A stretch of 62,557 nt of DNA, counting the filler, from Bonamia ostreae (lineage: Eukaryota): assembly GCA_040357525.1 (NCBI GenBank). It is 30 parts of 30 records of this genome, joined end to end, with 100 filler letters (N's around TTAATTAATTAA, not from the genome) between each part and the next. Parts side by side here need not be neighbours in the genome. Positions count along the whole stretch, not along the records: positions 14,688 to 16,684 come from JBDODL010001141.1; 29 more parts are not named here. One strand, written 5' to 3'. Within the stretch, counting starts at the first letter, position 1, and every line of letters starts with the position of its first letter. Of this stretch, positions 2,101 to 30,000 are shown piece after piece. The position numbers and the translations under genes were made by a program. The notes below the pieces were generated by a model, which was not told where the DNA came from, did not search any database, and saw only the letters and a program-made list of their open reading frames with translations.

Positions 2101-2419
2101 AATCAATCTGAGGTGTGGATCACACACCTTTTCGTAACAAATGATAAGTATTTGGAAGCTATGTATAGGGAATACTAAATTTATATCCGCCCCTGTGTAG
2201 CAATTGCACTTTGAAGAACAACAACTATATTACAGCCTATAGAGTTCAGTATCAAATCCACGTCTTGAACAGTTTAAATGAATAAGCATAAATCGTCCTA
2301 CATAGCTATTCGTCAATATATTTATAACTTGCCGCCTAATAATCAACTGGCGGCTGTAAGATAAGCTAGCCTATGTCTTATATCGAATACAGGGGCAATT
2401 TTGTTTTTGTGTTGACTGC

Positions 2420-2855
2420 CCAAAATTTTAGCCATGTTTATAACTTTTAAATGGTTAGGGCTCTCATACTTCATATGCGTATTCCTTTTGACAATGCCAT
2501 TTCTTTTGTACGAAAGGTTTTTTTACTTTGTGACCTTGTCGTATGGCTAGTTTTATAAAACAATGAATTTGACAAAATATCCTGGATTAGATAAGGTAGG
2601 GAGTTCATATCTTGTCTATAGATGCCTTATGTCAGATACCATGATCATTGTCCATGTGACCTGACATTGAAATTTGACTCAAATTTCACAATCTAACATT
2701 TCCTCGTGACTTTAATGGTGTGTGACATGGCTTTCCTATTTCATATGTGCATTCTTATGATAAAGGCTCTCGTTTGGTACCAAATTGTTTGACCTCGATC
2801 TCGAAATGTTTCTTTCTTTCACCGTAGTCATAGTGTTTCACAAATACACCTTGTT
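2420..2855. repeat. Degenerate bivalve-type Helentron/satellite-like repeat (host-type DNA)
   Basis: Recurrent blocks such as ttcatatgYgYattcYt and gtgacct(t)g, ending ...gtttcacaaatacaccttgtt. Resembles oyster Cg170/HindIII-like repeats from memory; not searched. Confidence 0.5.
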
Positions 2856-5239
2856 TGCTAACTGGCATCAGAAGCTTAGCATGTACATAAATGTAAAAAT
2901 GTACATATATTACCTAAATCTACATAGATTATCTAAATTCACTTAGATTACCTAAAGCTACATAGATTACCTGTTCTTAATGGGTTTAGATAGACATTTT
3001 CATTGTATATAAGACGCCTCTTTGTCCGTCATCTTACTTCAGCATATATTGATGTTGAGGATATTATTTCATAAATTTCCAATGCATGTTTGTAACTATG
3101 TCAAAGATATAAATTATGTTGAACATTGGAGTATAATGAAGTTTTTGAATAGAGTTATGATATTTCGAAATAAAGTTGCTGTACCAATCCAAACAACTCC
3201 AATATAAATTGCAAAATCAATATGTTAGTTGTATTTTTATCATTCTTGACTTTTATTGTGGATTTGTCTGAATTCATATACGTCAAAATTTCGAATGAGA
3301 TAACACATTTGCTGATAAAATATGAAACTACGCATGCCCCGAGTCTCAATCAAGCATAAATAGGCTTGTCATGAATCTTTACTTCATTATTCGCTGAAGT
3401 TGCACTCGACAAAAGTATTCATCTCTCTCATGACCATGACTGTACCTTAGCAATTGAAAGGTAACTTGCTTTATATCATTATCTACAAACACAATTGTTA
3501 AAGTGTACTAATGTATCGTTGGATCAATAGATGATAATGTAAAGCATTGTAAAGTGTGTAAACAAAATACACTTCCTTGAAATATATAACCTAAATTGGT
3601 AACCAAGCGTTGGGGATGCTCACGGGTATGTTTATGCACCTGTAAATGCGAAATCGCTAAATCGGACACGATCGGCAAAGTGGATTGTTTTTCTCTGTAT
3701 ATTTTGAACTTGAGGTAAGAAATAAATTTCAATTCCTTATTTTTCAGGACTCTCTCGACCTTAGCGATTTTGTAACAACTTTTAATTGTTCTCTATATGT
3801 TTTTACATTTACATTTTTCTCATAAATATTTTCTTTCTGTTTCTATTCTTTTTTTTTTTCCGTGAATATTTCCACCTAAAAGTAGTATGCGAATAATATT
3901 CAAGTGAAATACAGTACTTTACTTTATGAAAATGAACATTTCAAATATAAAAGTCAATATTCATGGTCGTAATGAAGCAATTGCTGTAATGTTAGGGTAT
4001 GTATAACGATTTGATTTGTACATCTCTCGAAAATCTATGCAATAGTATAAGCCACCACAATAATAAACAATTCATTGTCAAAATAGCAGAATGTTTGTTN
4101 NNNNNNNNNNNNNNNNNNNNNNNNNNNNNNNNNNNNNNNNNNNTTAATTAATTAANNNNNNNNNNNNNNNNNNNNNNNNNNNNNNNNNNNNNNNNNNNNA
4201 CATTATTGACGATTTATATGGGGTAAAACAATTTTCTGGCGATTTGATTAATTCAAAGAAAAGAACATAGCAATACAATTTGCCCAGTGACAATGAAATA
4301 TCCATAACAAAATCACTCTAAGGATCAACATACTGTAGGTTAGCTGCATTTTGTAGTCCCATTCCCTAATCAGGGACAATATATTCTGGATATATTGTAA
4401 TGAATATGTGTATTTTATCCCTGTATTGAGAGTCCAACTTCTAAATTGCAGCGGTTAAATGAAATGGTTTGAATTCCAAGGATTTTCACATTTAGATAGA
4501 CTAAATGACGTTTAGTTTTAAATATAAAGGATTTCTCTGTTTCTTTTGTTTAAGCAAGTAGAATGATTCTACACCTTTTTACATTTTCCATTTCAAACAC
4601 TTCTTACTGAACCTATACCATTCTTACTTATTAATAAAGAGGATTGCTATATGTTGAAAGGATAAATTGAACTTCAAGTGTTATCCATAGAGCAATGGGA
4701 GAAAGATGTTTTCTCTTGCGAATTATTCGTATTGACACCATTCCGATTTGACGAGACATAAAATATAGATAGAAATAGATTTATAAACGAAAAATAATAA
4801 ACTAATTATTGAAGAGCAGTAAATATTTGCACGCATGAATTTACACATTTTTTTCTTTTTTGAAGGTCATTTGATATACATTGTACACAATATTCACTTA
4901 TCGATAGTACAGAATGGTTTTTACTACAAATGCCTGAGTAGAGAAGGGCAATGATAGGTTACCGTATTTTCTCTTAGTCAAGATTTTAATTTATGTATCG
5001 TTATGGCCAGAACATTGTCTGCCTGTATAGACAAACATTGATTTTTCAGCAAATTTTCAGTAAAGTCGAACTAAAGGGATGTGTTAAAGAGTATATCCAA
5101 AGAAGATTCACTTTTCCCGACAAATAGTTTACCACATATCATGTAGAATAAAATTCATACTGTAAAAACAACATTTATTACAATGAGTTGTCAGTATCTT
5201 ATCCATAGATGTTAGAACCACTCCACTTATTGCATTTCT

Positions 5240-5405
5240 ATGTCTTACATGCTAGAATCACACCCATTGTGTTCTAGCGAGTGTTCAGTATCTTGCATGC
5301 TATAATCACACCCAGTGTGTTATAGCAAGTTTTCAGTTTCGTACATGCTAGAATCACACCCATTGTGTTCTAGAGAGTTTTCAGTATTCCATATGCTATA
5401 ATCAT
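5240..5405. repeat. ~48-bp degenerate tandem repeat (host-type DNA)
   Basis: Unit atgctaRaatcacacccaKtgtgttMtagcRagtKttcagt seen at least three times, with decayed copies nearby. Confidence 0.8.
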
Positions 5406-5529
5406 TCCTTAGGTGTTCCATTGATTTACTCTAGGATAGGAGTTAACATACATGTATGGTACAATCGCTACCCTGATGTTTCAGTGCCTTTTACGTATTC
5501 TGTATGTTAGAATATCTAGGGCGGTGCTA

Positions 5530-5605
5530 CATTCACTTCTAAATGTCAAGCATTTGACGAAGGGGCAATTATTGCCTATGGTTACGTCTTGAATTTGATG
5601 TGGGA
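5530..5605. mobile_element. Degenerate mollusc-type SINE fragment; related fragment near 33955-34035
   Basis: cattcacttctaaatgtcaagcatttgacgaagggg resembles cattcagttctgatgtcagtctcatagcgaatggg in another contig; SINE assignment is from recall of oyster repeats. Confidence 0.4.
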
Positions 5606-6298
5606 CCCAAATAAAAGACCCCACCCCCCGTTTACTCTGTGTTCCAGTGAGTTTTCAGTATTGTTTAAATCGCTATCTACATGTTCCATTGAGTTAGTAT
5701 TTTACATGTTAGAAACACTCCCCAGGTGTGTCAGTGAGTTTTCAGTTTCACCCGTTACGACGATAGGATCGAGACATTCTGAAATGCGAATTTCAAAAGA
5801 TATTGAACTAGTTCCTATTTTTGGATTTGAGACAATATACGCATTGCCTTTTCATGGTCTCGTAAGGAAGAAATTAATCTGATTCGCGGTGACAGTGATC
5901 TTGTCAGCTTTATGACAACGACTCTAAGCATTCAGCCTCTGTTTAAAATGAATATTGTTCGAAATATCTTCCAAAGTTGTAAATAGCAGGTCTACTTGTT
6001 AAAAAAATGTAATGAATAATAAGAAACACCCACAATCGCGGAATACAGCCACGAGAGGACCTAAATTACTAAAGCATGTATTGCGATTGTATATATATCT
6101 CGATATAAGATTTTTACAAAAGTTGGTCAACATAAATCATGTATCTTTTTAATGAAGAAGACTATATATTTAATGAAAATCAAGTTACAAGAATGAAANN
6201 NNNNNNNNNNNNNNNNNNNNNNNNNNNNNNNNNNNNNNNNNNTTAATTAATTAANNNNNNNNNNNNNNNNNNNNNNNNNNNNNNNNNNNNNNNNNNNN

Positions 6299-7852
6299 AA
6301 TTCCAAAATCTAACAATCTAAAAATTCCTCAAATCTAGTAAACGATAATTGGACTTATTTCTTTGGCAAGCAAAGATCAGTTTTAATAAACTTCATTTCT
6401 TCAATACCAAATGTTCTGATATCTCTCTTTGTTCCCGGTCTAATAAAAAACTTCAAAGCAGTGACAATCCATTCAGTAAACGTTGCAGTTCAATTGATAT
6501 CTTGTTTTTGTTTCATTTTGGCTGTTTATGTTATAAAGATGCCTTTTTTCATCGCAAATGATCCCTCTTCATCGAATCTTGGCTTCGTTATAGTTGGTTG
6601 CTTTAATTGCTAATTCAAAAAAATGATTAAATTATTTTTATAAAACAGTTGTTTCATTAATGATTTCATCTGCATTTTTCGCCATTTCGCAAACGATGTT
6701 CTATGCGTTTTTAATATTATTGAAATTTAACGTTGAAAACGAACTTTAACAAAAGATATTTTGCAGAATATTCAAACCAAGCAGTTCAGATTGAAATAAC
6801 GGGAATGGCGGCACCAAATGTTCTCTTTGCTCTATATTCTTTGCTTATTAAAAACCAAATTACAAATTTTCAAAAACGGCAAATTTGCTATTTTTTGTTC
6901 CCGATCGTTCTTCATTTTGCCGCATTGTTCATATTCTTTATTCATTCTTCCCCAAAACCACAGAAAGTTATTATTCTTTATTCAAACTATTCTTTGTTAC
7001 TCGAAATTTTAACAAATGTAAAGAGAGACGCAAACGTAAATAAACCACTTCAGAAGAAATCGCTTCGAATTTTCTATAAAGCAGTTTTAAACAAAAAATG
7101 GAAACTAATCTTATTAAACGCGTGTTAATATTTAGCCAATTTATCTGTAACTAAAATAAAAATAAAAAATTGATTTAACAAACATTTTTCAAAGCACTTT
7201 ATTATTCCACGTTTTTGGTTTATCCGTCTATAATGATGAACATTAAACCTTCAAACGCTAAAATCGGTGACAACTGGGGGTTAGTGCTTCTTTTTCTGTA
7301 TGGTGTTTCAGAACTTGCTGCCCGGATCATCAACGCTGCAGATTTTGATTTTGTTAAAAAAATATTTTCAGAACGAAATGTTTTAATGTTTTTTGTTACC
7401 GCAAGAAAAATATTTTATTCAAAGATTCCAAAACTAATTGATGTTTTGAGGCAAGAACTAAATATTTTAATAAAAAGAATGGGATCGATAAGATTCTTAT
7501 TTGTTTTGATACCAATAGCAACATATATGGCTTCAGAAGGACTGTTTTATTTTCCGTCACCAGTTCTCGACGTTATTAATTGCGCTTTTTATTTATTCTA
7601 CGGATTGTCTCATGGATTACTGTTATTCAATTTTTATTACCAAATTTTTTTTAAAAAATCTAAAATTTTAATATTTCTTCTGATAAACTACTTTTTTGAT
7701 AAAATAGAGGAAATAATATTGCCGTGTATATGTGCAACGAATTGGAAGAAGTGGGTGAGATCAAAATCGCAAGTAGCTATTTTTCCTTTTCGTTGGTCTG
7801 CAGTTGCTCCTTAGGATTGTTGAGCAGCTACCTCATTATTAAAATAGTGTAA
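6299..7852 (+). CDS. Equilibrative nucleoside transporter (ENT/SLC29), 5' truncated, multi-exon
   Basis: Multiple TM segments with VYPSIM, YGVSELAAR, RFLFVLIP, YGLSHGLL. Splicing 7388-7477 and 7622-7707 gives an ENT-like C-terminus ...GEIKIASSYFSFSLVCSCSLGLLSSYLIIKIV*. Confidence 0.7.
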
Positions 7853-7860
7853 CCTTTATC

Positions 7861-8121
7861 TTATACTAAATGTTTTAAAATACAAATTCTTTGCCTCTCT
7901 AACCGCTTGAACACAAATTCTAACCTTACAAGTTCAACGATTATGTTACAAATTTCCATTGCGGAATCTGAGTCGCATTTGAGTAAATCTTCTAATTTGC
8001 ACATCACTAAAGTTTTTGGGTCTTTCCAATTTTTTTCTTTAATAGATTCTGGAGGTAACATTGAAATTGTATATCCTTCTAGCAAATCGGCGTTTAACAT
8101 ATAATGGCAATAAGAAAACAT
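7861..8121 (-). CDS. Terminal exon of an unknown protein, convergent with the ENT gene
   Basis: 86-codon ORF with protein-like composition in a gene-dense contig; no family recognised. Confidence 0.4.
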   Translation of the reverse strand: MFSYCHYMLNADLLEGYTISMLPPESIKEKNWKDPKTLVMCKLEDLLKCDSDSAMEICNIIVELVRLEFVFKRLERQRICILKHLV

Positions 8122-8842
8122 ATGCTCATTTGATCACCTACCTGTGACAATGAGTAAGATAACAACTCAGTGGAACAAAACAAGGAAACATATTTGGAGA
8201 TGGACAACTATTATTTGAACGATTTTTCACGTATCAAAATACAACCTCGATTAAATTTTTATTAGTCAATTTTTCTTTAATGTTTAACTTGTTTTCNNNN
8301 NNNNNNNNNNNNNNNNNNNNNNNNNNNNNNNNNNNNNNNNTTAATTAATTAANNNNNNNNNNNNNNNNNNNNNNNNNNNNNNNNNNNNNNNNNNNNCACC
8401 ATCTATTTACACTGCATTTTTCTTTAAGATATCACCAATCATTCATTCTTTAGCATAAAAAATCCTTGTACTCAGACACCACCCCACCCCTGAAATTAGC
8501 TTTAAATTGAAGAATTCAAATCCCACTTATATTTTCGATATACTTATAATTATACATGCTTATAAGGAATGAATGTTAGATAGATCTTTGTCCTACTATA
8601 CAAGTGTTATACTCTGCATTCCTGGAAAAATTCTGGATTTGTCCCTGTAGGGGCTTCGTATATACATGTATCAAAACTACTGACCTGGGTGGAAAGTGGC
8701 AATTTAACTAATATTCTGTTTTTGTTTTTGACGATTTATTTTGTTTTACTTGATTTGATACTCGTATACAAGATCCCAGGATCCGAGCCAGTACTCATTA
8801 CATGGCTGAGAATACAGTACTCGTAATTGTAATGGAAAACCA

Positions 8843-9788
8843 AGGACGCGCTTGATTTGTCTACACCGACAAAACAATGTATACATTTTCTAGATAAAAT
8901 GCAAAGGTGTTTTCTTTTTCAAAATTCAAAATGGTTCTCGCATGGTGTGGCGGAAAATTTGCAGATTTTCTCCTGTATTCTGTAAAGTACATACGGCGAT
9001 ACTTCGAGTGTATTGTTTTAGGTCATTTACAAGATATTTCAAAGAACAAATGAAAACGATTGATATAATTTCTACGACCATCAAAATCAAATTGGCGCCA
9101 ATAATCGGCATATATCTTGGGGTATGGCTTGGTATTTTTTTTTAGATGAATGTAGGTATTTAGAAATGCAAATCAAAATGTATGTTTATATTTTCTAAAA
9201 ATCTTTAATTCAAGACAATGCACATTACACACAATTAATTAGTTTTTGTACTTTTTTGCATAAAAGGATAATACCAGTTTACTGTAAGATAGTCGTAAAG
9301 AATAAAATTTAATCGTATAATGTAAACGAATCATATATTTCGAACAATCATCAAAAACACGTTTGGTGTCATACATCAGATGTATATAGGCATTTATAAA
9401 AGCACATTAAAAATCAAAATACTTTTTAATTAATGAAAATGCTTAAATCATAGACAATGGAGGATACTAGCAATATTTGTTTGCATTAAAATTGTTAACG
9501 CTTTTAAATGTTTAGGCTCCAAGTTAGTTGGGTTGGAATACAGTTATTGAAGTTTTTAGAAATAAAAATAAACACTTTAAAAGATTTATTTCATTTGTCC
9601 AGAGTTAATTTCTCAGGATGTGTTTTAGAAAAGTAAAAGAAAATGAATGAAATGATATGTTATAAAAATAAAGAAGTTTTGATATTTATATGCTAGAATA
9701 TTCACATTGAATATACTACACTACACCAATTTGCACGAAAATCAACTATACTGGGTGTACAACGGTGTAGACAAACTAAGTGCGTCCT
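8843..9788. mobile_element. Non-autonomous DNA transposon (MITE-like) with 26-bp imperfect terminal inverted repeats
   Basis: 8843-8868 aggacgcgcttgatttgtctacaccg versus reverse complement of 9763-9788 aggacgcacttagtttgtctacaccg (23/26 identical); no transposase inside. Confidence 0.7.
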
Positions 9789-10529
9789 ATGTATGATAGA
9801 CTCTACATATATCTAACTTAACGGAATTCCAAACATCCTTATATGTAACAGATTTGTTATTTTTAATGACCATGTTTACTCATGGCTTTTAACGATATTG
9901 GTGATTCTGAATATTAGATGGGAAAACATTTGTATATGTAAATATAATATCTCTCCGAAATCGTCGACATTGAGGGCATCAAACGTACATGTATACGCCT
10001 CAATACTTTTAAAAAGATTTCCCCATAACACTTCCATGAAGTCCCGAACTCCCATACATGCTTTACAGAAGAACCAAATTATTCAATACATGCAAATTTT
10101 GTCATTTCTAGAAAACGGTCCTGATGCAAATATGATATGAATAAAATGAAAACCAATCACTAAGGGATGGGATTATTATATTGTTGGTCTGGAGATATGA
10201 CCACCCTTCCCCAAGGGGATGAATAATCACTCTATAGCCAGTTTTCCGTGGTAGGTATAAGAATATAATCCAAATCAAACACGCAGGGGGAATACTCACT
10301 ATTGTTATTGGGGGTGGGGGGGCACTAAGTAGCCAGTTTGTGCTTCTTTTTTGTGTTTTAAAAGATAGATATATTATATCTAGATCTAATATANNNNNNN
10401 NNNNNNNNNNNNNNNNNNNNNNNNNNNNNNNNNNNNNTTAATTAATTAANNNNNNNNNNNNNNNNNNNNNNNNNNNNNNNNNNNNNNNNNNNNAATTGAT
10501 CACTTTTCGTTCTCTCCACCTTTCCTCTG

Positions 10530-11170
10530 TATGTAATTCTTTGATTTCCAATTGTGGCCCACTCTAACCCGAGGACCATGGTTTGAGCACAGTGCGTAAT
10601 GAGAATTGCTTTCTTTATTTGAGCATGTAAAATTTTGATCCTTTCTTGTAACCGCATCCTACCACCGAAGATTATGATTTGAACAAACCTGGATCTTAAT
10701 TATGTCAGAAAGTTTTTTTGTTTTTTTTTTATATTTCAAAATCTTTGGCACGGTGGTTATTGAAAAGAAGATTTAAATGATTTTCCTTATATGATTGTTT
10801 ATAAAGTTTTAATTCCCTACTATGGCTCTATCATATTCTGGGGGTTATGAAACGATAAAGCATGGATTTGCACTGTGTAGGGAAGCTTTCATACAAATTT
10901 CAATTGAATTAGCTCAATGCTTCTTGGGAAGAGTTGCGAAAGTTACCTCTGTATGCTTTGCTCCCCTATTTATCAACGACGCCACGCCATTGTGATTTTG
11001 TTGATTATATCCCATTTCGAAAGGAGCAAGGACCATCATTTGAAGATATTTGAGTCTTCTTGACCAATAAATGATTTGTATTAAGTTTGATGCAAATTGG
11101 GACAGTGATTCAGGGGAAGATAGAATATTAAATATCTACAAACCGAGAGGTATACAGACGAAAGGCGATC
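10530..11170. repeat. Degenerate ~165-bp-unit Helitron-associated satellite-like repeat (host-type DNA)
   Basis: Three or four decayed units (tgtggccc..accc..atg..ttga...tgtcagaaag / tgtagggaagctttcat...cttgggaaga); oyster-type by recall. Confidence 0.55.
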
Positions 11171-12002
11171 AAATTTCATTGCATTGTATATGTACCACAC
11201 ACGTGTCAATACTCAAATCAATCTATTGTTTATCGCACACATATGTGATCTTAGTATGAAAATTGCGTAATGTGGGAAATTTCCAGGATGTTTCTTTTAT
11301 TTTCACCATGGTCACAGGGAAGGCAATACTTAGTGAATAGCTCTTATTGGAAAACGGAATAGTTCAATTGTTTTAGTGGTATGTTTCAGGGTCTGTACCT
11401 TTCCTAAAATAGGAGACCTTGTCAGTAATAGGATGATATATCGGCTGTGTATATAGGTACAAACTGTATAGATAAATAAACGGTGTCTATCGTATCATTA
11501 ACCACATGATGAGATTTTAAAATGATCCGTAACATAATTTGTACATAGTTGACCTTATTTCTATTATCTCGAAATACTAAACATTACTTATGAGTTCAAC
11601 CGTCGACTGCAATGATTCTAACGTTTTGTATTAGTATATTAGTGGCTGGCATTTCATCGTATGAATTCGGTGAGTGCATCTTTTTTTTCTTTCCATCATT
11701 GTTGCTTATTTGTTATTCTAAAAAGTGACCTGATGTACCTCACTATCAACATTTGTTCCACAAACATTAATTATGACCTTAGGACTAAAAAGCAACACGT
11801 TTTGCAATTGCTGACATAGGCTCAAATTCAAAATAGAATTGGTTGAATACCATGCCAGGCGATGGGCTAAATATTAGAAGGAAAAAATCGATACCTTGTC
11901 AAAGTGATTAAAACGTATAAGATGATATCAAAATTTAGCATAAAACTAATCAAACAATTGTGCGTACCATCTATTCTATGTTAGACTGGAGCTAACGAGC
12001 AG

Positions 12003-12240
12003 AGATCAATCTCATAATTCCTATGCATACAGAATATAAAATTACGAGGAGGGAAAATACGACCCCTGAACATACTCGAGGTGGGATCAGGTACCTAGAA
12101 GGATTAGGCATACCCTGTCAACCGCCCAAACCCACCACCAGCCCTATATCTTCTTCAAGTAATCAGCGTAATGCGTAGTCAACATCAGAGTGTAAAGAAT
12201 GATATAACAATTGATTTGAAACAGGTAAATTACAAGAACG
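12003..12240. repeat. Dispersed host-type repeat; inverted partial copy at ~31262-31317
   Basis: gaggtgggatcaggtacctagaaggattaggcataccctgtcaaccg loosely matches the reverse complement of tgaccggtctacggaagatgct...actcctatacaactcaacccacctc. Confidence 0.5.
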
Positions 12241-12590
12241 GTTTCACCAGGTTTGAATTTCTGTTTCTGACCCATCTTTGATTTTCTTCTGCAACATCGA
12301 TTTGCTTGCCAGTAGCCTATCTCGAGTTAAAAGCTGAACATACACAGAACACCCTCTTGTGTATCAAATAAATTGAGAGAAGAACGCTAGTTTTACTTTT
12401 TGACTTTTCCTTCAGAAATTTGAAAGTATAACCAGACTGTATGACCAGAGACTTACTGAATCTAAGATATTCTGATATGCTTCATGTGTANNNNNNNNNN
12501 NNNNNNNNNNNNNNNNNNNNNNNNNNNNNNNNNNTTAATTAATTAANNNNNNNNNNNNNNNNNNNNNNNNNNNNNNNNNNNNNNNNNNNN

Positions 12591-13619
12591 CCACAAACGA
12601 ACTTTTGACGCAATTAGACGGTTTCAAAGAAAACGACAAAATCGTCGTCATCGGATCGACCAACATGTTCAAAATTTTACTTTTTAAGGCGACAAATGAT
12701 CGACAAAACTCTCCTCCGCTCTGGCCGCTTCGACCGCTCCGTCTACGTCCCCCTCCCCGAACTCAAAGCACGCAAACAAATGCTCCACCTCTACTCAGCA
12801 GGAGTCCAAACCGATGAATCCGTCGACTTTGACAGAATCGCCATCGACTGCGTCCTCAGCTCCGGAGCAGACATCGCGAACATTGTCAACACCGCCAAAA
12901 TCTCCGCCGCCAAGAACGACCGCACCGTTCTCTCCGCCAAAGACTTCGAAGCAGCCGTGCTCGACGTTTCCAACGGCGTGGAACGACAATCGCTTCAACT
13001 TGGTGCGCCGGCGCGGCGTGCGCTCGCCATCAGCGAATCCGCTTGCGCTCTCGTTTCACTGCTAACAAAGTCCTCCTCACGCGAACTGAGGCGCATTTCC
13101 ATCGTCCCGCGTGGCCTCGAGCTCAGCTCCTCGCGCAGCGTGCCTTCTAGCGAAGACGCGATGGTCTCTCAGAGCGTGGAGCAGTTGTTGGCGCGGATCG
13201 ACGCCGACATCGCGGGGCAGATCGGGCAGGAGCTGCTGCTGGGGAAAAGTCGGATCATGTCGGATTCGAAGACGCGTTGCGAGCGGGCGACCAAGTTGGC
13301 GCGTTCGATGAGCGCGGAGCTGGGGATGGGGAAGCGTCTCGGCTTTGCGGCGAGCATGTTCGCCAACGAGAACGTTGATTGGCGGACGCCATATTTGCCA
13401 GCGCAGACTCGGAGCGCGATCGATGAGGATGCGGTGGAGAGATTGAAAGAGGCGGAGGAGCGAGTCTTAAGATTGCTGAGGAGGAACAAGTCTCGTCTGC
13501 TGGCGTTGAGCGAGGAGTTGTTGGTGAGGGAGAGTTTGGGGAGGAAGGAGATTGAGAGAGTTGTTGAAGAGGTGCCCGAAGATGATTTTGAGGTGAAGAC
13601 GACAAATAAAATTGATTAA
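12591..13619 (+). CDS. FtsH/YME1-family AAA ATPase with degenerate M41 peptidase domain, 5' truncated
   Basis: NELLTQLDGF...IVVIGSTN and SRH LLRSGRFDR joined by a 22-nt intron 12667-12688; SGADIANIVN lid; ISIVPRG. HEXXH is replaced by SESAC. Confidence 0.9.
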
Positions 13620-14587: not shown

Positions 14588-14918
14588 NNNNNNNNNNNNN
14601 NNNNNNNNNNNNNNNNNNNNNNNNNNNNNNNTTAATTAATTAANNNNNNNNNNNNNNNNNNNNNNNNNNNNNNNNNNNNNNNNNNNNGATTTTTGAATAA
14701 ATTTTTTTATTGATTTTTTTATGGAAGAAATTTTTATCGAATAAATTATTTATCGATTTTAAAATAAAATTTTAAAGAAATTATTTTATTTGTTTTTATA
14801 GAAATTTTTTATCGGAAAATTTTTTGTCGATTTTAACAATAGTTTTTTATCGATTTTTTACAATAATTTTCCGACAATTTTTTACAAAACCAACAATTTC
14901 GCTATAAAAATCAAAACC

Positions 14919-15633
14919 CTTTTTTAAGAGCTTTGAAAATATCCCATTCGTTTCTCACAATAATCTGTTCAAGATTCTGAACGCTAATCGCGTTTTTTCC
15001 ATCATCGAAAATCCGCAAGTGCTTTTCTTCGTCGGATAATAAATCGATCAATTCTTCGTTGTAAAGTTCCAGAAAAGACACTCGAATCGAGTGCTCTATT
15101 TTCTTCGATTTTAGTTCTCCGTAAATTGATTTCACGGCACGAGGGATTATCCCGGCGTTTCTTCCAAGTAATTCATTCGCTAAATTTAAAAAAATTACAA
15201 TTTAATGCCAAATTATAATCGATTTCTCCTTCGATTGTAAATGTCTTTCCGGTGCCAGTTTGGCCGTAAGCAAAAATTGTACAGTTGAATCCTTCGATCA
15301 CTTCTCTTATTATCGGTGTCACAGTTTTTTCAAACAACTTTAAAAAATTTTTGATTTTGATAAGAAAAGAAAATTTTGATTTTGAGAAGAAAAATTGTTT
15401 TTTTTCGATTTTAAGGTGAAAACGTATTCTTGTTCTGTAAATTCGTCGTAAACGCGATCAAAATTAAATTTTTTGACAGTGGAACTAAGACTGATTCTTT
15501 TTTCAATTTGATTAATTGTAATTTCCTTTTCGTTATTTTGGAGTTTTAAGCTTTTGGACTTTAATCTTTCAAATTGCATTTCAGGTCTTATTCTTACAAC
15601 AACATTAACATTGTGTTGTATTTTGTTCTTCAT
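14919..15633 (-). CDS. KIF11: Kinesin-5 (BimC/Eg5) motor domain, 3' truncated
   Basis: [40 protein letters not shown] (P-loop), [23 protein letters not shown]; introns 15338-15423 and 15180-15198. Confidence 0.9.
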
Positions 15634-15728: not shown

Positions 15729-16684
15729 ATGGCTTCTGAAAATAAAAATAAAGTTGAATTGGAAAATTCCACGTTGGAGAAAATGCTGTTGAAGACCAAA
15801 TTTGATAAAATTGAAAATTTGATCAAGATTCGCCAAAATAGTCTAAATTTTAAATTTTAGAACACAATTCGATGTTGCACGATAAATATAATTTTTGGGA
15901 AGAAAAGATTAAAGAAATAATCGAAAACTTTGAAAATGTAAAAAATAAAATAAAACTAGAACAAACTGCGATTCTCAAAATAAAAGTTGTTATAGCCAAA
16001 ATTTAGGGAATGCTGTCTAAAGCAGAAGAGCAAAATAAAAAATTAAAACATTTAAAAAATAATATTCCGGACGATTTTTCTGATATTAAACAAAAAGTCA
16101 TTAAAGTTTTTAATGTTCAAATTTTCGTAGAAAAAAGCTTTAAAATCGGATAAAAAGTCCAAAATGTCTAAAAATTCCGCGCCAATTAAAGAACCGAATC
16201 CGACAATTAAAGAAACTGCTAATTTTAAAATACAAAAAATTAATGAAGAAGAATTTAAAAAAGTGCCAAAGTTTTCAATTAAAAAAATTGTTTTCGCAAA
16301 AATTTTTTCTATTTTATAAAATTGTTTTCGCAAATAAAAATCTTTTCAATTTTTGAACTGGAAAAGTTATATGAGAAGCAATTTAACAATGGAAAGGATT
16401 AATAATGCGATAACTGAAGCAGAAGAAACTTTATCACGAAAATACAATCTGCTTCAATGCTCTGAAAAGAAACTTGGAAAAAGAGAAATAACTGTAAGAA
16501 AAAGCTATTTGGAGCAAGAAAACAAGGACACAAAAGGTCATCGCTTCTTCATGGGAAGCGACTTAAAAAACGCTGTTTATTTAAGCGTCACATCTTCATC
16601 CGGTTAATTTTGCAATAATTTTGTTTTCCAGGAATAAGCTTTAAAACATTAATATATGGATAATCACTATAAATGAAAAAGCTT
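15729..16684 (+). CDS. SKA1: Spindle and kinetochore-associated protein 1, multi-exon, 3' end uncertain
   Basis: Spliced INEEEFKKVPNYMRSNLTMERINNAI...KYNLL...EQENKDTKGHRFFMGSDLK matches the recalled SKA1 microtubule-binding domain (EF..VP.YMK.RLT...IN...KY..L...ETKDTKG..F..E.DIK); N-terminal coiled coil; 20-nt intron 15841-15860. Confidence 0.8.
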
Positions 16685-17536: not shown

Positions 17537-18757
17537 TTATAGAATATTTATTGTCTGAGAAGAAACTAAAAAATTTTCTTTGAATGTCAAAATTGTTGCA
17601 AATCGACCACTGCCACAGCAAACAACAGATTTTGCCATTTTTGATTCATTTTCAAATCTTTTTTCATCACATTCGACAAATTTGTAAATCGCATCCGCAT
17701 CTTTGCAATCATAAATTTTCATCAAATCAGTTTCTACCATTTTCCAATAATATATTTCCCCCTTTTCTGTGCCCAAAATTATCTAATTGCAAAAATTGGA
17801 ATCAAAACATTGGAATCAATGAATTTTAGAGATGTTATCAAATTTTTCAGGTAGTTTGCTTTAACCAGAACTCGAGTTTTTGTGTGATATAATTGGATTG
17901 TTGAATTTGTACTTGATATAGCGACATATTCACCATTGTTGTCTATGTCCAAAGCTAAGATTTCTGATTCAAAAGAAGGCGTGTCTGTAACTACACCACT
18001 TGCCGAATCAATTCCGAAAATGTTTTTTTTGCTTTTGGTGTCTAAAAATTTTTATATTCAACCCCAAAATTTGAGCAAGCCGTCTAAACTCCCGCTAACC
18101 AAAACCGACGAATTTTCATGAACAAAATATTTTAATTGTAAAATATAATTAAAGTGCCCTGTTAAACTGTGAATTATCCTGTTTTCGTTCAAATCGTAAA
18201 TTTTGATGGCGTTTGAACCATCTGCTATGTACATTAAATGTTCCTTTATATATTTTTGAAAATAATTGAACATTTTCGTTTAAGGCAAAATCATTTATTT
18301 CAAACGGTTGAAAAATGTCGATTGTTTTTATTGGTCTAATGGAATTTTTTTGATTTTCATTTAAAGACTTGGCCATTGCTTTTAAATCGAATATTAGCAA
18401 TGATTTATCAGTGCCACTTTTTTAGATTTATATTTTTAATAAATGTTGAAATTTGGCACAAATAATTGTTGTAACTTTAAAATGAAAAGCCATATTTAAA
18501 AACGCGAAAAGACTGTTTAACTGAGTGCTAACCGTCAAACAGCGGACAGTCTCGTTGACGGATATTTTAAGAATCCTCTGCATGGTTAAATCGTCATCAT
18601 TTTTAGATAAAGAGAAAATTTGTATTTCTGATTCCTTTCTGTCTCCTCCAAAAATCAAAAATTTCTTTTTATTCAAAGTGACAGTGCAAATACAGAAAAC
18701 GGTGTTTTGATTAGAGTAGTTTATAGCATTCAAATTTTTGTAATGAGCTTTAAACAT
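17537..18757 (-). CDS. WD40-repeat protein, THOC6-like, multi-exon
   Basis: FEINDFALNENEHLMYIADG...YDL...SLTGHFNYI...VSGSLDGLLKFWD after removing introns 18244-18271 and 18042-18062; resembles the THO complex subunit 6 block by recall. Confidence 0.6.
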
Positions 18758-20977: not shown

Positions 20978-21538
20978 CTAAGAGGTGTTAACAGGGGTAG
21001 TTTTATTACTGTGAGAAGTGTGCACAACACCAGAATAGAGATACTTTGGCGAGATTTATTTGAAGGAGTGTTATGCATATTCTACAACCTCTTTCATAGT
21101 TTAGAAAATGAAGATCTCTTAGATCCTGCAGATGAGATTGATATAGGTTGTTTGCATCTTGTTTTTCTGCCAAAAATAAACAAAATGTTGGAATTACTCC
21201 AAAACATGTGGAACAATCACAAGTTACGAACAGAGAGAAACAGATCACCTCTTCAATTGTTCATGATGGGATTACAAACTGTTGGTAACACTACCATATT
21301 GGGAAAAGAATACTTCGAAAACTTTGATGAAATTTCAGCTTCATCCTATGATATTGATGGAGAGGAAGAAAATGACCAACTTGACGAAGAAGAAGAGAAT
21401 ATTGTAGTTCCTCCAACACTTCATGATCAGCAACAATTTCAAGAAATATTGAATAGTATAAATACTGAAGATGTAGGATTGTGGAACGAGGAAGTGTACA
21501 TATCATTAAGAAACCACGTAAAAAGTACTTTGTCATGA
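20978..21538 (+). mobile_element. C-terminal part of a DDE integrase-core protein of the eukaryotic IS481/IS3-like type (host-type DNA)
   Basis: RGSFITVRSVHNTRIEILWRD (family motif G-x-S-V-H-N-x-R-I-E-R-L-W-R-D), LHLVFLP, WNNHKLRTERNRSPLQLF; intronless. Confidence 0.7.
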
Positions 21539-22108
21539 AAACTATATTCATGTACCAGTTACATGTATTTAGATTCATTTTAGGATGCATCATAAATATG
21601 TGTACATGTAGCATTTGTAGTCTTATAAAAAAAAATCATATTGTTACTTTATACATGGAAATTTTCGCCATTATCACAAGTTGTCCAAATAAAAACGGGG
21701 CGAATTCAATGGAAACTGCATATTGTCTTTAAATTGCAACTGTGATTGGGCAAATTTAAAATGGAGCAAAATTGTTCTAAAAGTGTGAAAGGGCAAAAAT
21801 AACATGGAATGAGCATTTAATTCTTCAACATACAGCTGAACTTATGCATCTTGAACACTGATATCTCAAATACCATGGGTACATGCATGTCAAAGTGATT
21901 TGGAAATCTCAGACAATTTTAAAATATTTTACCCTCCACATTTTGAACCACTGGATACCGGAAAATTTTCTCTTGGTCCCATCAAGTTTGAGATAATGAG
22001 GTTCATATACCTATAACTCCATGATTCTTGCACCAAAAAATGATACATTAACAGTAAATTGACTAAACACTGTTTGAATGGATTTTGCTCAATAACAGTC
22101 AATAAATG

Positions 22109-22217
22109 TCACTCTGTGGTCTAACATGAACTATTTTTGGACTAAATTAAAAAAAAGTCGAACATTTCCAATGTTTTACTGAGCAGTCAAAAAAGTTTAT
22201 GTTAGACCACAGAGTGA
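22109..22217. repeat. ~33-bp inverted repeat with ~40-bp spacer
   Basis: tcactctgtggtctaacatgaactatttttggact ... agtcaaaaaagtttatgttagaccacagagtga. Confidence 0.85.
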
Positions 22218-23971
22218 GATACTGGACCTGGCAATGAGATATTGGACCGCTTACGTCACATTGTGGGCAGGATTAGCTATATCTTATTTGCATGTGTTGG
22301 TGTTATATAAATCTTGAGTTAGATTTATACAAGAAACAATTTTTAAAGGTATAACAATCTGCTTTAGTGTAGAGAGCATCCTTAACAGCCGCAGCTCCAA
22401 CAATGTTAGCTTTGTGATACAAGAACAGGAAAACACCTTCACATTTGGTGCATGTAAAAGGATACCAAGAGATTTTGCTTTTGCTGGGAATGAATCTCAG
22501 CTAGTAAAACAATCTAGTGTTATATTGATCAAGTTATATGTTAATCTAAAGCGAAATATAGTACATGTAGGAATGCGAAACATCTCCAAAAGCCACAAAT
22601 ACATCTGTACATGTATAATTATCAAAGTTGTAATAAAGAAAACAGTACATTGAAAATGACCAACAAAATATTTATTGAAGTAACATTAAATGACTAGTAA
22701 TTTAACAGTTTAATGAAAGTCCAAACTAGACCAATTCACAATAAAAGGCATAATGATATGCCCGTCGGGCATTGTGTTCGAATTTCTGTGAAAATAGTTT
22801 GATAATATTTTATACCTTATTGCCACTGGTTTGGAGTCCTACATCAATAAAAGTTTTTTTAAAAGCTGAACACGACTCATAAAAGCCTAGTTTGCCATAT
22901 TTCTCTTTGTATGGCTATTTCAGAGAAAACTTGTATGGCTATTTCAAAGTCGTATTTAGCCGAAATATTATNNNNNNNNNNNNNNNNNNNNNNNNNNNNN
23001 NNNNNNNNNNNNNNNTTAATTAATTAANNNNNNNNNNNNNNNNNNNNNNNNNNNNNNNNNNNNNNNNNNNNAGCATCAATCAACGGGGAACCAGTTTAGC
23101 ATAAGATTAGTCCAAAAGGGGTTCCTATGGAAGACGTTCAAATGTAACAAAAAGGAATATTGAAAAATACAAAAACTTTATATTGAAAAATACAAATAAT
23201 AATTGAATCTCTCCACCTGTCTCATGAGAGATACATTGTATAGCAATATACGTTGAGAAATACTATTTTCTTTACTAACATGGCAGACGTAGCTCTTACC
23301 GAAGCAATATTTAACATTAGAGTTATACAAACTTCTTGAAGAAAATGAATTGAGTAACGTTACATCTCTTCCAATGATATTTTTGTAAATCTTTTTATTG
23401 ACCACAAGTTCAAAGTCCGAATAAAATTGGATGGAAAACAACATATCTTCTTTTTTGTAACTTCCACTTCCAGTACTATCAAAAAGTAGTAATAATGCCT
23501 TAGTATCCCAACACATTAAATAATGATGTGAATGTATAACTTAATACCGGAGCCCGGTATAATTGAGGTACGGTGACCTTAAGTTCCGGAAATTACGGGT
23601 TCCAGTCGGCAGCTCAGCAATCTAAACATTTTTTGTCCTTTTTGCAGGACTACTTATCTTTTGATCCCCTATAAAATGAATTGAAATACTACACAGATTT
23701 ACTCATCCGTTCAAGTACACATACATTCCATTCATATTCCCGTATTTCTATCAATAGTAGTACTCACTCAATTGTGACAATTTAATCAAACCACTAGCTT
23801 CCCTTTGATCTCAATAACTCAATATTTGTTAGGTAGGCATTTTAATAATTTAACCTTAAAGGGGGACTATAACGGACGTTGTACACCATTTAGGATAATG
23901 GTTACTTCCTTCCTTTGATTTCAATATATCATTATCTTAATGAGCAGAATTAGCATGAATAAAATTACTTT

Positions 23972-24680
23972 TTACTTAAACAGGTAAGAGGTATTGGTCA
24001 GATTTACTACAGTGGATACCTTTTCATTGTCTAAATATTTTAACAAATATTTTGACGATGCTTTGTCCATGTAACTTCTACATCCGTAAACTGGACATGG
24101 AACTACATGCTGAATGCAATCTTCACAGGAAGTGTGGCCACATATCTTCATATGAAAATCCAACTATAGATGGATGAAAGTGTTATATAATCATTTTTTC
24201 ATATGTACATATCGTACACATTTGCTATAGCTGTGACTGAGTCAATGATCGTGTTTTTTCTAGTTTGATTTCATTGAAAGCATCTGTAGCAATATTAAAT
24301 TGGTTTATATAGTTTTGAACGTTTGAGATGCTGATTACTTAACTTACGTTCTTTTTGCAGCAGATTTCACATCGTTCTTTACGTCTCTGTAATTGAAATA
24401 TAAATTATATTGAGGATTATTTTTCATGAAAGACAAATTAACTCATTAGTTAAATATGACGTTCAAATGAATGTTCAATACCGAACTTAATGGTGTCTCC
24501 GAGTTTCTCTTTCCTTGGGAAATACCAACGTTATTGCAATGTAACATTGGACATAACAAAATGGTTGTGGATTCCAAACTGGTGTGCAGGCATAATTCGC
24601 AAATTATATGTCCACAGTTTACCTCTTCAAATATAGCCTTCAAGTTTAAAAAAAGCAAACAATAGCATTTAGGTAGTACT
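23972..24680 (-). pseudogene. Disrupted, apparently intronless gene with two RING-finger-like motifs
   Basis: CYC...CGHIICELC...CPMLHC and CTIC / CGHTSCEDC...CPVYGC, interrupted by stops and a frameshift. Confidence 0.45.
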
Positions 24681-25187
24681 ATTATTCCACATTAGTTTTA
24701 TTTGCTATAACGATCAACTACATCAATGAAATTTGCGTAGAAATGTTTCATCGTACATGTATCCAATCTGTATGTTTTTGTTTCATTTTGAAAATGCCTA
24801 TATATTGATGATACCCTATCTCAAAGACTATTATATCAAACATGTAACTAGTTATCTAGCAGACAGCAGGAGGAACATAGCTACCCCCTAATAGTAACTA
24901 TTGAGTATTTGTCCACTTTCGTGTGTGAATTCGAAGAAAGTACTGGAATATTCGAACAGTTATATTTTCAAAAAATCCATGTATTTGATTTAACATTTAT
25001 TTTTCAATTTCCAATAGTTAACATTACAGGGGTTTCAACAGTTGCGTTTAGCGTCAGCATTTCNNNNNNNNNNNNNNNNNNNNNNNNNNNNNNNNNNNNN
25101 NNNNNNNTTAATTAATTAANNNNNNNNNNNNNNNNNNNNNNNNNNNNNNNNNNNNNNNNNNNNAACAAACCCATTAACAAAATGGCA

Positions 25188-26317: not shown

Positions 26318-27038
26318 ATGGCTCATTTTAAGGGAAGCGAAGAGGATTTTAACAGAGAAAGGGAAGGAATGAATATTCGAATGAGACAACAATTCGAATT
26401 TGAAGAAATCAAAAAGAAACTGAAAGAAGAATCGAACAGAGGATTGGTCACGCTCAGTTTAGAACTTTAAAAATTTAGATCAGCAGTTTTCGAAAGCAGA
26501 TCTCACTTCGGTCGACAACTTTAAGTCGGAAACAATCGGTTTGGTTTCCGCGGACGAATTTAGGCGAAAAAGAAAAAAATTGCTCCAAAATAATCAATCC
26601 GAAAAAAAGTTTTGCAAAAAAATTTAATCGATTGAGGCAAAATTTAATAATTTTCAGAATAGATGAAAAGAAAACAAATTTCAAAAACAAAATCGAGGAA
26701 GAAAACAGGTTGCTGAAAAACAAGATTAAAAACACTTTGTCGTTCGATCCTTTTCAAAGTGAAGACGAACCCACCGCAACAAACAGCAAAAAACTAAATT
26801 TCAAAAAGAAAAAATCGCTAAAAAATCCAAATGTGGATACTAGTTTTCTTCCCGACAAGTTTTTTATTTTTTTTAATTTGTAAACTCGAAAATATTTAGG
26901 GAAAGAGATAAAAGGGATGCCGAATTGAGATCGAAATTAAAAAGAAAGTGGATCGAGAAACAAGAATTGATTAAAAATGAAAAAATTGAAATTATTTATG
27001 TCTATTGGGATGGATCCGGCCATAGGAAAAAAATAACT
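26318..27038 (+). CDS. FAM50A: FAM50/XAP5 spliceosome-associated protein, 3' truncated
   Basis: MAHFKG..., ETIGLVS, KNPNVDTSFLPD, EKIEIIYVYWDGSGHR; 22-nt intron 26457-26478. Confidence 0.92.
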
Positions 27039-30000
27039 GTTATTTTTTGCTAAATTTTATTATTTTTGCAAATTGGAAAACAAAACTTTTTGTAATTTTG
27101 TTATTTTTGCAAATTGGAAACAAAACTTTTTGTAATTTTGTTATTTTTGCAAATTNNNNNNNNNNNNNNNNNNNNNNNNNNNNNNNNNNNNNNNNNNNNT
27201 TAATTAATTAANNNNNNNNNNNNNNNNNNNNNNNNNNNNNNNNNNNNNNNNNNNNAGTCTTCATTCTCCCCCGCCGCTCTAGCGCCTCTAGCAGTAGTGA
27301 GTGCCGCACTTTTTCTCATGAAAATAAAATGCTCAAAAATATTTACTAATAAAAACACATCCATTAACAGTGATGAAATATTAGAATGGACAACTAATCA
27401 ATCACCACGCAGCACCGCATGCAAAAAGCACATCAATTAAAAACCCCTAAAACGACTTACTTTTATCATGGGGAATAAGGTACTTGCTATCAAAAAATAA
27501 ATAAAAATGGATGTATGTGTGTATTTTTTTTTTTATTTTTTTTTTGTTGGTTTATTTAGTAATTAATACATCTACTAAATTCCTGAAATATTCGAATTCG
27601 AAACTTTTATATTTTCTATGATGTTAAAACTGTGATATACCTGCATTGTCCCCCGAACTCCCCCATAACAGTATAAAACGCTTCTCCACTGAACATAGCT
27701 GGGGAATGTGTGTTAATTAATAATAATTACATGCGGTGAGAATTATTTATTTTACTCCCATAAACATCAATTTAGTATCCATTTTCATCCTTGTTAAAAC
27801 GAAGTTTGTTTGTCGCAACCCTAACATTTATATCATTCAAATATTGCTTACTAAAGTATATGTGTACGTGTGGTATGCCGTTTCAATGTATTTATTTTTT
27901 CCCCTAAAATTACTGAACTTTCAGCTGAACGTATAGAACTTATACCAAAAAAAAAAAAAAAAATATGAAAAAATGAAAAATGAATGTCTTGGTTGAAGCA
28001 TGAAGTAATTTTTGCATTGTTTGATCTTACAAATTGGTCCCATTGTTTAATACATGTAACATGGCCTCTTTATACAAACAATTTAGATAAGTATCCTTCA
28101 ATTAGGCATTCCTACTGAAGGACGATATTTCGGGGTATACATAGGGAATATTGGCTTGCATGATTTCATTAATTTTTTTAATTTTTTTTTTACATTTCCC
28201 TACTTTACACATATAAGACTGATGAATAATTTCATTTAATAACAGTTTCTGTTAACTTCATTTTCGATCCTAATTCTGCTTGAAATCCCATGCACTTTAT
28301 ACTTTGAATGATCATCTTCAGCTTCAAAACCGATGTTAGAATACATGCTCGCATTACAGGACTGAACAAGCCATATAACTTTCCAACAACATATTCTACA
28401 CGAAAACCATGTGAACATTCCATGCGAAAATCATGCATCTTTCTCTTCATCTTCTTTTCATATAACAGTTTACATGAAATTCATGTGAATTTCATAAAAG
28501 AATTATGTGAGCTACTTTCTCTCTGTAATAACATGAGAAGACAGGTCGTTTGAATAAATCTAGATTTGAGTGATGAGTATCGGTGCCTCTTACAATGTTT
28601 TTATATCAATCAAGACCATTCTCTTTACACTTGCATACATGTATTATCGAACTTTAGGAAATGTTGCAGAGTGGTCGCTTAATTTTGTGAGATTCAAAAA
28701 CTTTGTTTACATTTAGAATTTTAAAAAAAATGAAACTAAGTATGTGTGTGGGTACGATGTGGTGTTGTTTTTCATTTTTCCCGCACCGATTCTTTGATTT
28801 TCTAGGTACTTTAAATGTCGATATCATGATGGGAACGAAAATTAACCCCCATGAACATTACTGATTTTATACCATATAGTATTAAGGATTGTTAATTTCT
28901 TTTTAAATTAATGCGACATGGGTGTGTTACAGCAAACTGCAAATGTTTGTTGTACATTTATCGATTAATCAATTGACATTGATCAATGTTCTGTACCTTC
29001 ATCTTTTATTGTCATAGTGACAAAAACAAATTGGTACATTGTCAACCAATGACTGTACACTATCTGTTTAGCTTGATATATTGATTATTCAGTAATTATT
29101 ATCACATAAAAAATTACGTTTCCCAAGGCTCTCCCCTTATGCAAGTACAACGTTATGTAGATGTTAAAAATCATGGTCAAATCTGTTGTTGTTTTATAGG
29201 CATGACTTTAACGAATATATCCCAAATATTCCTGGAATGGACATATNNNNNNNNNNNNNNNNNNNNNNNNNNNNNNNNNNNNNNNNNNNNTTAATTAATT
29301 AANNNNNNNNNNNNNNNNNNNNNNNNNNNNNNNNNNNNNNNNNNNNCTGATTTCTATGTGAAACTGTACTTACAAGATATTCGATAATTGACATGACTCA
29401 TGAACTCTGCTTTGATTCAACATGGGCATTAATAGAACTAACCTCTATTCCAGCAAAATATGGTAGGCTTCTTTTCGACATCGGACCTGGTATACCTTTA
29501 TAGACACGTGTTACTCGGACAGCGCAAGAAATCTGTCAAAGAAAATAATTAGTTTCAATCAAAATTTCTTAAATTGTACGAAAATTATTTCTAAAAAGAG
29601 AACAATGTCGTTTATCAGAGTAGATTTATATATAGATCATTAGAATGTAAGCATCAAATTACAAGGAATTAATGTTTATATAGTCATGAAAATATACTGA
29701 AGGACTTTGTAAACGCAACGAATCTTTATTCCAAATACTTTGTGTTAGCATACTTTTTAAAATGTCTGTTTTGCAAACTTCACTTATTTTACATCTTGTT
29801 TGTTTTAAATTCATAACCTTTATAGAATTGCATTTATTATTGCATGCAATTTCTGGGGAATATTCAAAACATATTTAAAAGTAAAGGCGAGTGTTGTAGT
29901 GAAAAAACAAAACAAATCCTGCTGGTTACCAAAAATGCAAAACATATTAAAAAATAATATAACGTGTTTCAACAATGAAATGCAAAATTAAGACATCGTT

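Follow-up and report, generated by a model that had tools for sequence, protein, structure and literature searches.

Tiny introns of about 20 nucleotides beside long, repeat-rich introns in the oyster parasite Bonamia ostreae

Introduction

How is an intron of 19 nucleotides recognised in a genome in which other introns are several hundred nucleotides long? The question is raised by a kinesin-5 gene of Bonamia ostreae, a haplosporidian oyster parasite, in which a 19-nt segment bounded by GT and AG interrupts the coding frame. A first-pass annotation had listed ten such segments of 19–25 nt, had taken them for introns close to the known lower size limit, and had argued that a fixed-length ruler cannot explain their recognition.

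In the mikrocytids Mikrocytos mackini and Paramikrocytos canceri (class Ascetosporea) all of 224 introns measure 16–17 nt, and U2, U4 and U6 only are reported; nucleomorph introns have 18–21 nt and those of heterotrichs 15–16 nt (PMC10245619). The narrow ranges which had been assumed for Mikrocytos, nucleomorphs and ciliates are thus borne out, for the ciliates in heterotrichs. The mikrocytid paper explains its introns by a functional minimum plus a deletion bias (PMC10245619). For B. ostreae the Ascetosporea genome paper describes canonical introns, two per mRNA; its passages on introns contain no lengths for this species, and the word does not occur in the supplements searched (PMC11069148). 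We found no published description of Bonamia intron sizes, of its U1 or of repeat-expanded introns in a search that included PMC13746701, PMC9998036 and PMC13685798 and left subscription journals mostly outside.

Results

Source of the DNA

The window, i.e. the whole stretch of 62,557 nt, is a concatenation of 30 unrelated contigs, each about 2 kb long, with N spacers between them; therefore no feature spans a spacer. It was taken from an assembly (G000) of 7503 contigs and 10.3 Mb and is mostly B. ostreae; a UAP56 exon was 99% identical to a deposited B. ostreae protein (P0003). Gene identities were derived from Pfam and PDB matches. In about 11 of the 30 contigs CpG observed/expected was <0.9, and these differ in composition and have fewer A/T runs. 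They appear to be host DNA included in the parasite assembly; one of them encodes a mollusc-type HSP70-12 at 54981–55358, matching mollusc HSP70-12 clusters.

2101–6198, 8397–12490, 20978–25063, 27256–31336, 33525–35511, 54366–56339: low-CpG contigs of the window

Every intron cited by the first-pass annotation sits on parasite-type contigs. An Rfam scan across the window gave no match. On a contig with 22% GC an RVT_1 domain (E 1.9e-39) lies in a LINE-like open frame of 656 aa (58516–60483, plus strand).

Ten tiny introns

1714–1733, plus strand: 20-nt intron (GT..AG, gene model, frame; gene without Pfam match)
12667–12688, plus strand: 22-nt intron, FtsH/m-AAA protease (GT..AG, gene model, frame)
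15180–15198, minus strand: 19-nt intron, kinesin-5 (GT..AG, frame, Pfam Kinesin 55–95 then 98–184)
15841–15860, plus strand: 20-nt intron (GT..AG, frame; upstream of an SKA1 match at 16338–16604)
18042–18062, minus strand: 21-nt intron with in-frame stop, WD40 gene (GT..AG, gene model, frame)
26457–26478, plus strand: 22-nt intron (GT..AG, gene model, frame; gene without Pfam match)
44278–44298, plus strand: 21-nt in-frame intron, AMPK/SNF1 catalytic subunit (homology to human AMPK alpha)
53569–53593, plus strand: 25-nt intron, H+-pyrophosphatase (frame; Pfam H_PPase on both sides)
57776–57798, minus strand: 23-nt intron, UAP56/SUB2 (GT..AG, gene model, frame; also removed in P0003)
62303–62324, plus strand: 22-nt intron without a homopolymer run inside (GT..AG, gene model, frame; no Pfam match)

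All ten segments have GT..AG termini at these coordinates and lengths, and removal left the frame open on both sides in each. Retention introduced a stop within 1–50 codons in nine; the exception is the in-frame AMPK segment, and there retention creates an exact 7-residue insertion compared with human AMPK alpha. The Pfam H_PPase match runs from 22 to 257 and continues in a different frame from 266 to 472, and a match to a solved FtsH starts at the acceptor of its 22-nt intron. The WD40 match at 18042–18062 is weak and restricted to the 3' side. At this junction and those at 1714, 15841, 26457 and 62303 no family match crosses, and the evidence consists of frame and signals. A gene model (described below) recovered nine of the ten in its printed genes; 15841–15860, the weakest, was absent from the genes above its print threshold.

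In kinesin-5 the 19-nt segment was the only GT/GC..AG choice that restored the frame between two conserved anchors. The site is in what we take to be the loop 5 region. The spliced loop has 17 aa; in homologues it has 7–22 aa, with a mode of 14 (100 of 120 homologues measured). Might such segments be homopolymer assembly errors, or coding sequence that is retained? A single 1-nt homopolymer indel did open the frame in five of the eight cited segments whose length is not a multiple of three, 15180–15198 included. In kinesin-5, however, this reading produces a loop of 23 aa, outside all 100 homologues measured, and at 1714, 26457 and 62303 no such indel opens the frame. The exact AMPK insertion also argues against it.

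RNA contigs skip tiny and long introns in one gene

Transcripts were placed on L033 (G000:C25), a contig of the same genome outside the window, chosen because the gene model predicted introns of 18–20 and of >300 nt in one gene. Run X1 is presumed to be RNA, for which its GT..AG joints argue; the joints listed on L033 were GT..AG in 4/4 cases. Of run X2, 13 records could be placed there, and of X3 none. X1 contigs and one X2 row skip or omit segments of 18, 19, 20, 20, 21, 23, 25, 25, 28, 29, 31, 73, 73 and 323 nt. A loose contig end matched the exon beyond a further 20-nt intron, which brings the number to 15 introns of 18–323 nt; 14 of them start with GTT. Introns of 20, 73 and 323 nt are located in one gene. 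With GT..AG termini in 10/10 cited introns and removal from transcripts of the 15 on L033, these probably belong to the major (U2-type) spliceosomal class.

Among 25 gene-model predictions on L033, 12 were confirmed, three had a wrong boundary, three were unspliced in the contig covering them and seven had no listed row. Two typical-looking candidates, L033:9299–9317 (19 nt) and 9396–9415 (20 nt), were unspliced in the covering RNA contig, a point in favour of the assembly-error or coding reading; retention, an antisense UTR or a wrong prediction would each account for this. Against that reading, RNA contigs skip 12 segments of 18–31 nt at GT..AG, and the peak at 19–20 nt reported below disappears with false signals. 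For the class as a whole it is already contradicted, and we give it next to no credence. That the tiny introns of Bonamia are real, as had been claimed from restored frames and motifs, is well supported.

Two further features of L033 were noted. A single RNA contig covers two convergent genes at 3741–4880 and is spliced on both strands, which suggests overlapping 3' ends; and an 864-aa gene at 5353–8457 (plus strand) carries eight introns of 18–323 nt and, in a scan of two of its exons, did not match Pfam.

Long introns in the same genes

15338–15423, minus strand: 86-nt intron, kinesin-5 (gene model; spliced frame open from ATG)
14688–14917, minus strand: kinesin-5, probable third intron of 230 nt or more, rich in repeats (truncated by contig end)
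57063–57450, minus strand: 388-nt intron, UAP56, 80% tandem repeat (ungapped alignment, TRF)
56693–56759, minus strand: 67-nt intron, UAP56 (ungapped alignment across the junction)
38201–38528, minus strand: 328-nt intron, RPAC1, 87% tandem repeat (PDB homology, repeats, open frame)
38789–38811, minus strand: 23-nt intron, RPAC1 (sequence, open spliced frame)
38951–39000, minus strand: 50-nt intron, RPAC1 (gene model, open spliced frame)
37862–37917, minus strand: intron of about 56 nt, RPAC1 (sequence; the gene model gave another donor)
45193–45526, plus strand: 334-nt intron between AMPK kinase and adenylate-sensor exons (gene model; spliced frame open)
43959–44183, plus strand: probable AMPK intron, at least 225 nt, repeat-rich (cut by contig start)

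The alignment of the spliced UAP56 protein covers 274 aa with 62% identity and has no gap. The deposited model P0003 already removes the 23- and the 388-nt intron, therefore the feature is implicit in the public annotation; P0003 misses the intron at 56693–56759, reads into it and ends early inside. In RPAC1 the exons flanking the 328-nt intron match residues 137–207 and 207–258 of one solved RPAC1 chain; the intron consists largely of a 63-nt unit in 4.7 copies which are 90% alike. For the 23-nt RPAC1 intron an alternative acceptor in the same frame gives 47 nt, the choice of the gene model. The boundaries of the 334-nt AMPK intron are from the model, not from homology, with Pfam PF16579 downstream. 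At 43959–44183 the AMPK kinase match begins at profile position 64, and the segment contains a tandem repeat and a single AG, at its end. The probable third kinesin-5 intron has a GTTTT donor where the motor domain breaks off, and tandem repeats; its sole HAG, at nt 16, is not usable, and the skipping is in line with a floor of 18–19 nt.

The claim that genes with tiny introns also carry introns of 328–388 nt therefore stands for UAP56 (23/388 nt), RPAC1 (23/328 nt) and, by the gene model alone, AMPK (21/334 nt). It is probable for kinesin-5 and does not apply to FtsH, the V-PPase or the other fragments in view.

Tandem repeats were located at or near many contig ends (14488–14587, 14716–14870, 27044–27155, 41877–41955, 43959–44059, 52017–52111, 52294–52345 and 58376–58413), which suggests that the assembly breaks at repeat-expanded introns and spacers.

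Genome-wide length distribution

A genome-wide histogram had been proposed as a check. We applied a self-training gene model with a flat (1/length) length prior to up to 10 kb from each of the 60 longest contigs, 573 kb in all out of 10.3 Mb; its initial splice-site profile had been seeded with nine of the cited introns. Genes scoring <50, introns with a flanking exon <50 nt and 29 predictions at 12–17 nt, the noise level of the model, were dropped, which reduced 1008 raw predictions to 613 filtered and 584 used. Being ab initio, the model under-calls introns that have no stop and a length divisible by three. The 613 filtered predictions comprised the following lengths:

12–17 nt: 29
18 nt: 10
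19 nt: 55
20 nt: 77
21–25 nt: 116
26–50 nt: 109
51–100 nt: 91
101–200 nt: 76
>200 nt: 50

In these 573 kb the distribution thus has a floor at 18–19 nt, a mode at 20 nt, which is indeed near the known lower size limit, and a continuous tail; it is not two-peaked. At 19 and 20 nt the flat-prior model placed 54 and 77 of 587 introns; with false CT..AC signals it placed 2 and 7 of 301. Since the peak is gone with false signals it is not due to chance. A model-free count of GT..AG pairs by distance over the same 573 kb showed only a weak excess at 19, 20 and 22 nt and was not used.

Both introns ≤25 nt and introns ≥100 nt were present in 48 of 118 multi-intron genes. Among 59 predictions ≥170 nt, 11 were Pfam-collinear (eight tight, up to 699 nt in Rpb2, and three loose), two were false gene fusions and 46 were uninformative. 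The long tail is real and its size is uncertain, because missed exons and fusions inflate it and assembly breaks at repeats deflate it. Lengths do not keep within a range of 2–4 nt: they extend from 18 to 323 nt by RNA, to 328 and 388 nt by homology and to 699 nt by Pfam. Length correlated negatively with gene GC (rho -0.31, n = 584), long introns being in AT-richer genes, and lengths clustered weakly within genes (p 0.018). The shortest introns were carried by GC-rich genes; the H+-pyrophosphatase contig (52291–54265) has 54% GC versus 25–35% in most parasite contigs.

Donor, putative branch point and snRNAs

Donors had T at +3 in 83–91% and at +4 in 64–75% of the 584 predictions, in all length classes; G at +5 was found in 8–15%. 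This GTT(T) donor, like the tandem repeats which make up most of the long introns, had been missed in the first-pass annotation.

A model blind to all but four donor and three acceptor bases revealed an enriched A. It was at nt 12 in six of eight 18-mers, at nt 12/13 in 63/67% of 54 19-mers, at nt 13 in 83% of 77 20-mers, at nt 13–15 in 21-mers and at nt 13–16 in 22–23-mers. In predictions of 19–21 nt an A is found within -9..-7 in 98–100%. The interval in which the A occurs begins no closer than about 12 nt to the donor and ends no closer than 7 nt to the 3' end; it widens with length and blurs above 24 nt. On sequence grounds this A is a putative branch point. The two minima, about 12 nt from donor to A and about 7 nt from A to the end, add up to the floor of 18–19 nt. 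The A peak fades above 24 nt, and a fixed branch-to-AG module kept in long introns was rejected. A polypyrimidine tract was not seen; positions -3 and -4 of introns >23 nt are most often A. Of 221 short introns, just 13% had YTNAY at -8.

The single U1 match in G000 (C1288; L069:766–921, minus strand; E 3.5e-10) is on a parasite-type contig. With 47.4 bits it is below the Rfam cut-off of 69.5, and its 5' end is unmapped. The candidate keeps stem-loop I and an Sm-like site; in gapless register with the canonical ACUUAC it has CAAAAC, which in silico is complementary to a GUUUU donor. Predicted pairing of this arm averaged -2.7 compared with -1.9 kcal/mol for the canonical arm and was better for 60% of the 584 donors. 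A U2 candidate (L070:368–514, minus strand; G000:C951) has an intact core, retains GUAGUA and carries a 2-nt insertion before the branch-pairing motif; its score was weak (E 0.2). U6 was not found in G000: there were three weak Rfam matches, the best being a dispersed repeat of about 12 copies, and a core-motif search gave three matches compared with six in a control. This dispersed non-coding element (L071:1480–1620; about 50–130 nt, at least 12 copies in G000) has a weak U6 score. Pieces about 80% alike to a related copy are in the window at 32903–32967 and 39261–39307, one of them just upstream of RPAC1.

U1-70K, Slu7 and Prp18 are present on parasite-type contigs. In this analysis the loss of Slu7 and Prp18 had been predicted, a prediction which is rejected. 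RED, a short-intron activation factor (PMC6692369), had no match here or in anything searched, the genome being incomplete.

Structure of the long introns

Tandem repeats were present in 34 of 50 predictions >200 nt and covered 32% of their bases, compared with 11 of 27 intergenic stretches (6% of bases) and 36 of 250 dinucleotide shuffles. Of 13 long introns for which homology or RNA provided confirmation, 10 had them; the CARME long intron was excluded from the 13 because of a 20-position gap. Such repeats are frequent in intergenic DNA too and so reflect a mutational process of a general kind.

AG is depleted. Observed/expected was 0.25–0.32 in the last 22 nt, 0.53 mid-intron and 0.82 in intergenic DNA, and the sense strand was below the antisense strand in each of the four length bins. 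The long introns of RPAC1, UAP56 and L033 include stretches of 292, 248 and 253 nt, respectively, that lack AG. This bears on a reading in which a ruler of about 20 nt persists and long introns are removed stepwise, as recursive or nested mini-introns. Nested GTT..HAG pairs were indeed in excess in 126 long predictions (6.6 per length at 19–23 nt vs 4.6 at 30–60 nt), yet the excess is small and missed short exons could produce it too. AGGT was found six times in these introns compared with 14 on the antisense strand and 23 in shuffles, and next to the long AG-free stretches the RPAC1 intron has no internal GTT at all. Stepwise removal is very improbable.

Alternatively, long introns might fold such that their ends are brought as near to each other as in a tiny intron. 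Two of the 13 confirmed long introns folded better than shuffles (z -3.7 and -4.0); 11 did not (z -1.3 to +2.8), among them the 388-nt UAP56 and the 328-nt RPAC1 intron, whose repeats are direct and A- or T-skewed. We regard folding as improbable. Because AG|GT is depleted and 11/13 introns fold no better than shuffles, neither stepwise removal nor folding rescues a ruler. The initial argument that a fixed length cannot explain recognition is thus upheld by introns of 20, 73 and 323 nt in one gene by RNA, by AG-free stretches of 248–292 nt and by the scarcity of AG|GT. This shows a splicing machine with a minimum size and no fixed ruler.

Choice of the acceptor in long introns

How the acceptor of a long intron is chosen is a separate matter. 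A strict rule, the first AG after 19 nt, agreed with 92 of 109 introns at 26–50 nt but with just 4 of 50 >200 nt, and was rejected; only 4 of 50 introns >200 nt are without an internal HAG. A 3' profile trained on short introns ranked the true acceptor of long introns above just 57% of the internal AGs and put it on top in 37 of 109 (30 expected). The 328-nt RPAC1 intron bypasses an AG at nt 36, though a good branch motif precedes it.

These findings would suit two modes of recognition, intron definition for tiny and an exon-based definition for long introns, comparable to types A and B of Trichomonas: the acceptor is not picked by local 3' sequence, exons are GC-richer than introns (0.36 in flanking exons vs 0.21) and lengths cluster weakly within genes. 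On the other hand, lengths are continuous and do not form two peaks, long and short introns have similar donors (GTT 83% vs 91%), and no shortening of exons is seen next to long introns (median 172 vs 137 nt). Two modes are rather unlikely as a complete account; they are partly compatible with the two-minima explanation set out below and could supply the step of acceptor choice that it lacks. The acceptor of long introns may be chosen by the step from AU to GC at the exon, or NMD may clear errors. That internal AGs are skipped by virtue of the step from an AU-rich intron to a GC-richer exon is a guess.

Discussion

We consider it likely that major-spliceosome introns of Bonamia are recognised by two local minima, without a length ruler, and that the long ones have grown by tandem duplication. 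The CAAAAC arm of U1, if the candidate is functional, would bind the GUUU(U) donor. The branch A would be picked by U2 through its canonical GUAGUA; it would be loosely specified and no nearer to the donor than about 12 nt. An HAG would serve as acceptor, with at least about 7 nt between branch A and intron end. Together the two minima would set the floor of 18–19 nt and the mode of 20. With no upper cap, introns in AT-rich genes could grow to hundreds of bases by internal tandem duplication and would survive where the new sequence is AG-poor, most strongly in the last 22 nt. The direction of growth, from short to long, is our inference.

The coexistence of tiny and long introns is not without precedent, contrary to the first-pass annotation. 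In myxobolids median lengths are 22–27 nt and introns >100 nt are present as well (PMC13644364), just as introns <30 and >100 nt occur in the one genome of Bonamia. As described there, myxobolids and Dicyema share with Bonamia weak signals, little or no pyrimidine tract, a canonical U2 and an A before AG that shifts away with length. Their donor is GTa, in contrast to GTT(T) and the matching U1 candidate in Bonamia, and the main text of PMC13644364 makes no mention of repeat expansion as seen in the long introns of Bonamia. Trichomonas has 63–84 introns in classes of 23–28 and 50–196 nt with the branch site near AG (PMC12316389). Like Bonamia it handles tiny and longer introns in one genome; its two classes are discrete, however, and a conserved branch motif is fused to the 3' site, whereas in Bonamia lengths form a continuous range, the branch site is degenerate and a gene has many introns.

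In Stentor the branch A is at nt 10–11 (PMC9505925), a lariat loop comparable in size to the 12–13 nt suggested for Bonamia. Heterotrichs and nucleomorphs have narrow fixed ranges without a long tail; with them Bonamia has in common a mode of at most about 21 nt. As regards the donor, Entamoeba uses GUUUGU in 88–90% of introns with a co-evolved U1 arm ACAAAC, and such co-evolution is called rare (bioRxiv 10.1101/2022.06.08.495308). GUUU donors and a U1 arm altered to match, in Bonamia one in silico candidate, are common to both; Bonamia differs by its rare G at +5, the arm CAAAAC and far shorter introns. Mikrocytids and Bonamia share the class Ascetosporea, and both are reduced rhizarian parasites with GT-AG introns near the lower size limit. 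Unlike mikrocytids, Bonamia has many introns per gene, a floor of 18–19 nt, a tail to 699 nt, a U1 candidate and a retained U1-70K.

A wider reading is conceivable, and we put it forward tentatively, as one that may well not hold. The Bonamia spliceosome could have been re-tuned at three U1 pairing positions (GUUUU), with a 12-nt lariat loop and no upper ruler, and with long repeat-swollen introns defined by base composition instead of the sequence of the splice sites. Bonamia might then represent a living stage between the usual rhizarian intron and the fixed 16–17-nt introns of mikrocytids, and deletion bias and tandem duplication would together set intron length, in a balance measurable between isolates.

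For annotation of Bonamia genes the minimum intron should be set at 18 nt and the donor modelled as GTT; repeat-expanded introns also seem to be places where the assembly breaks. A U1 arm matched to GUUUU would add one more independent example of donors and U1 evolving together. Bonamia separates the steric minimum of the spliceosome from a fixed length, two properties that Stentor, Mikrocytos and nucleomorphs leave confounded. As one genome holds thousands of introns of 18 nt and more, a single RNA-seq or lariat data set would suffice to read off the minimal distances from donor to branch (about 12 nt) and from branch to end (about 7 nt), and the mikrocytid model of a floor plus deletion bias becomes testable in a relative.
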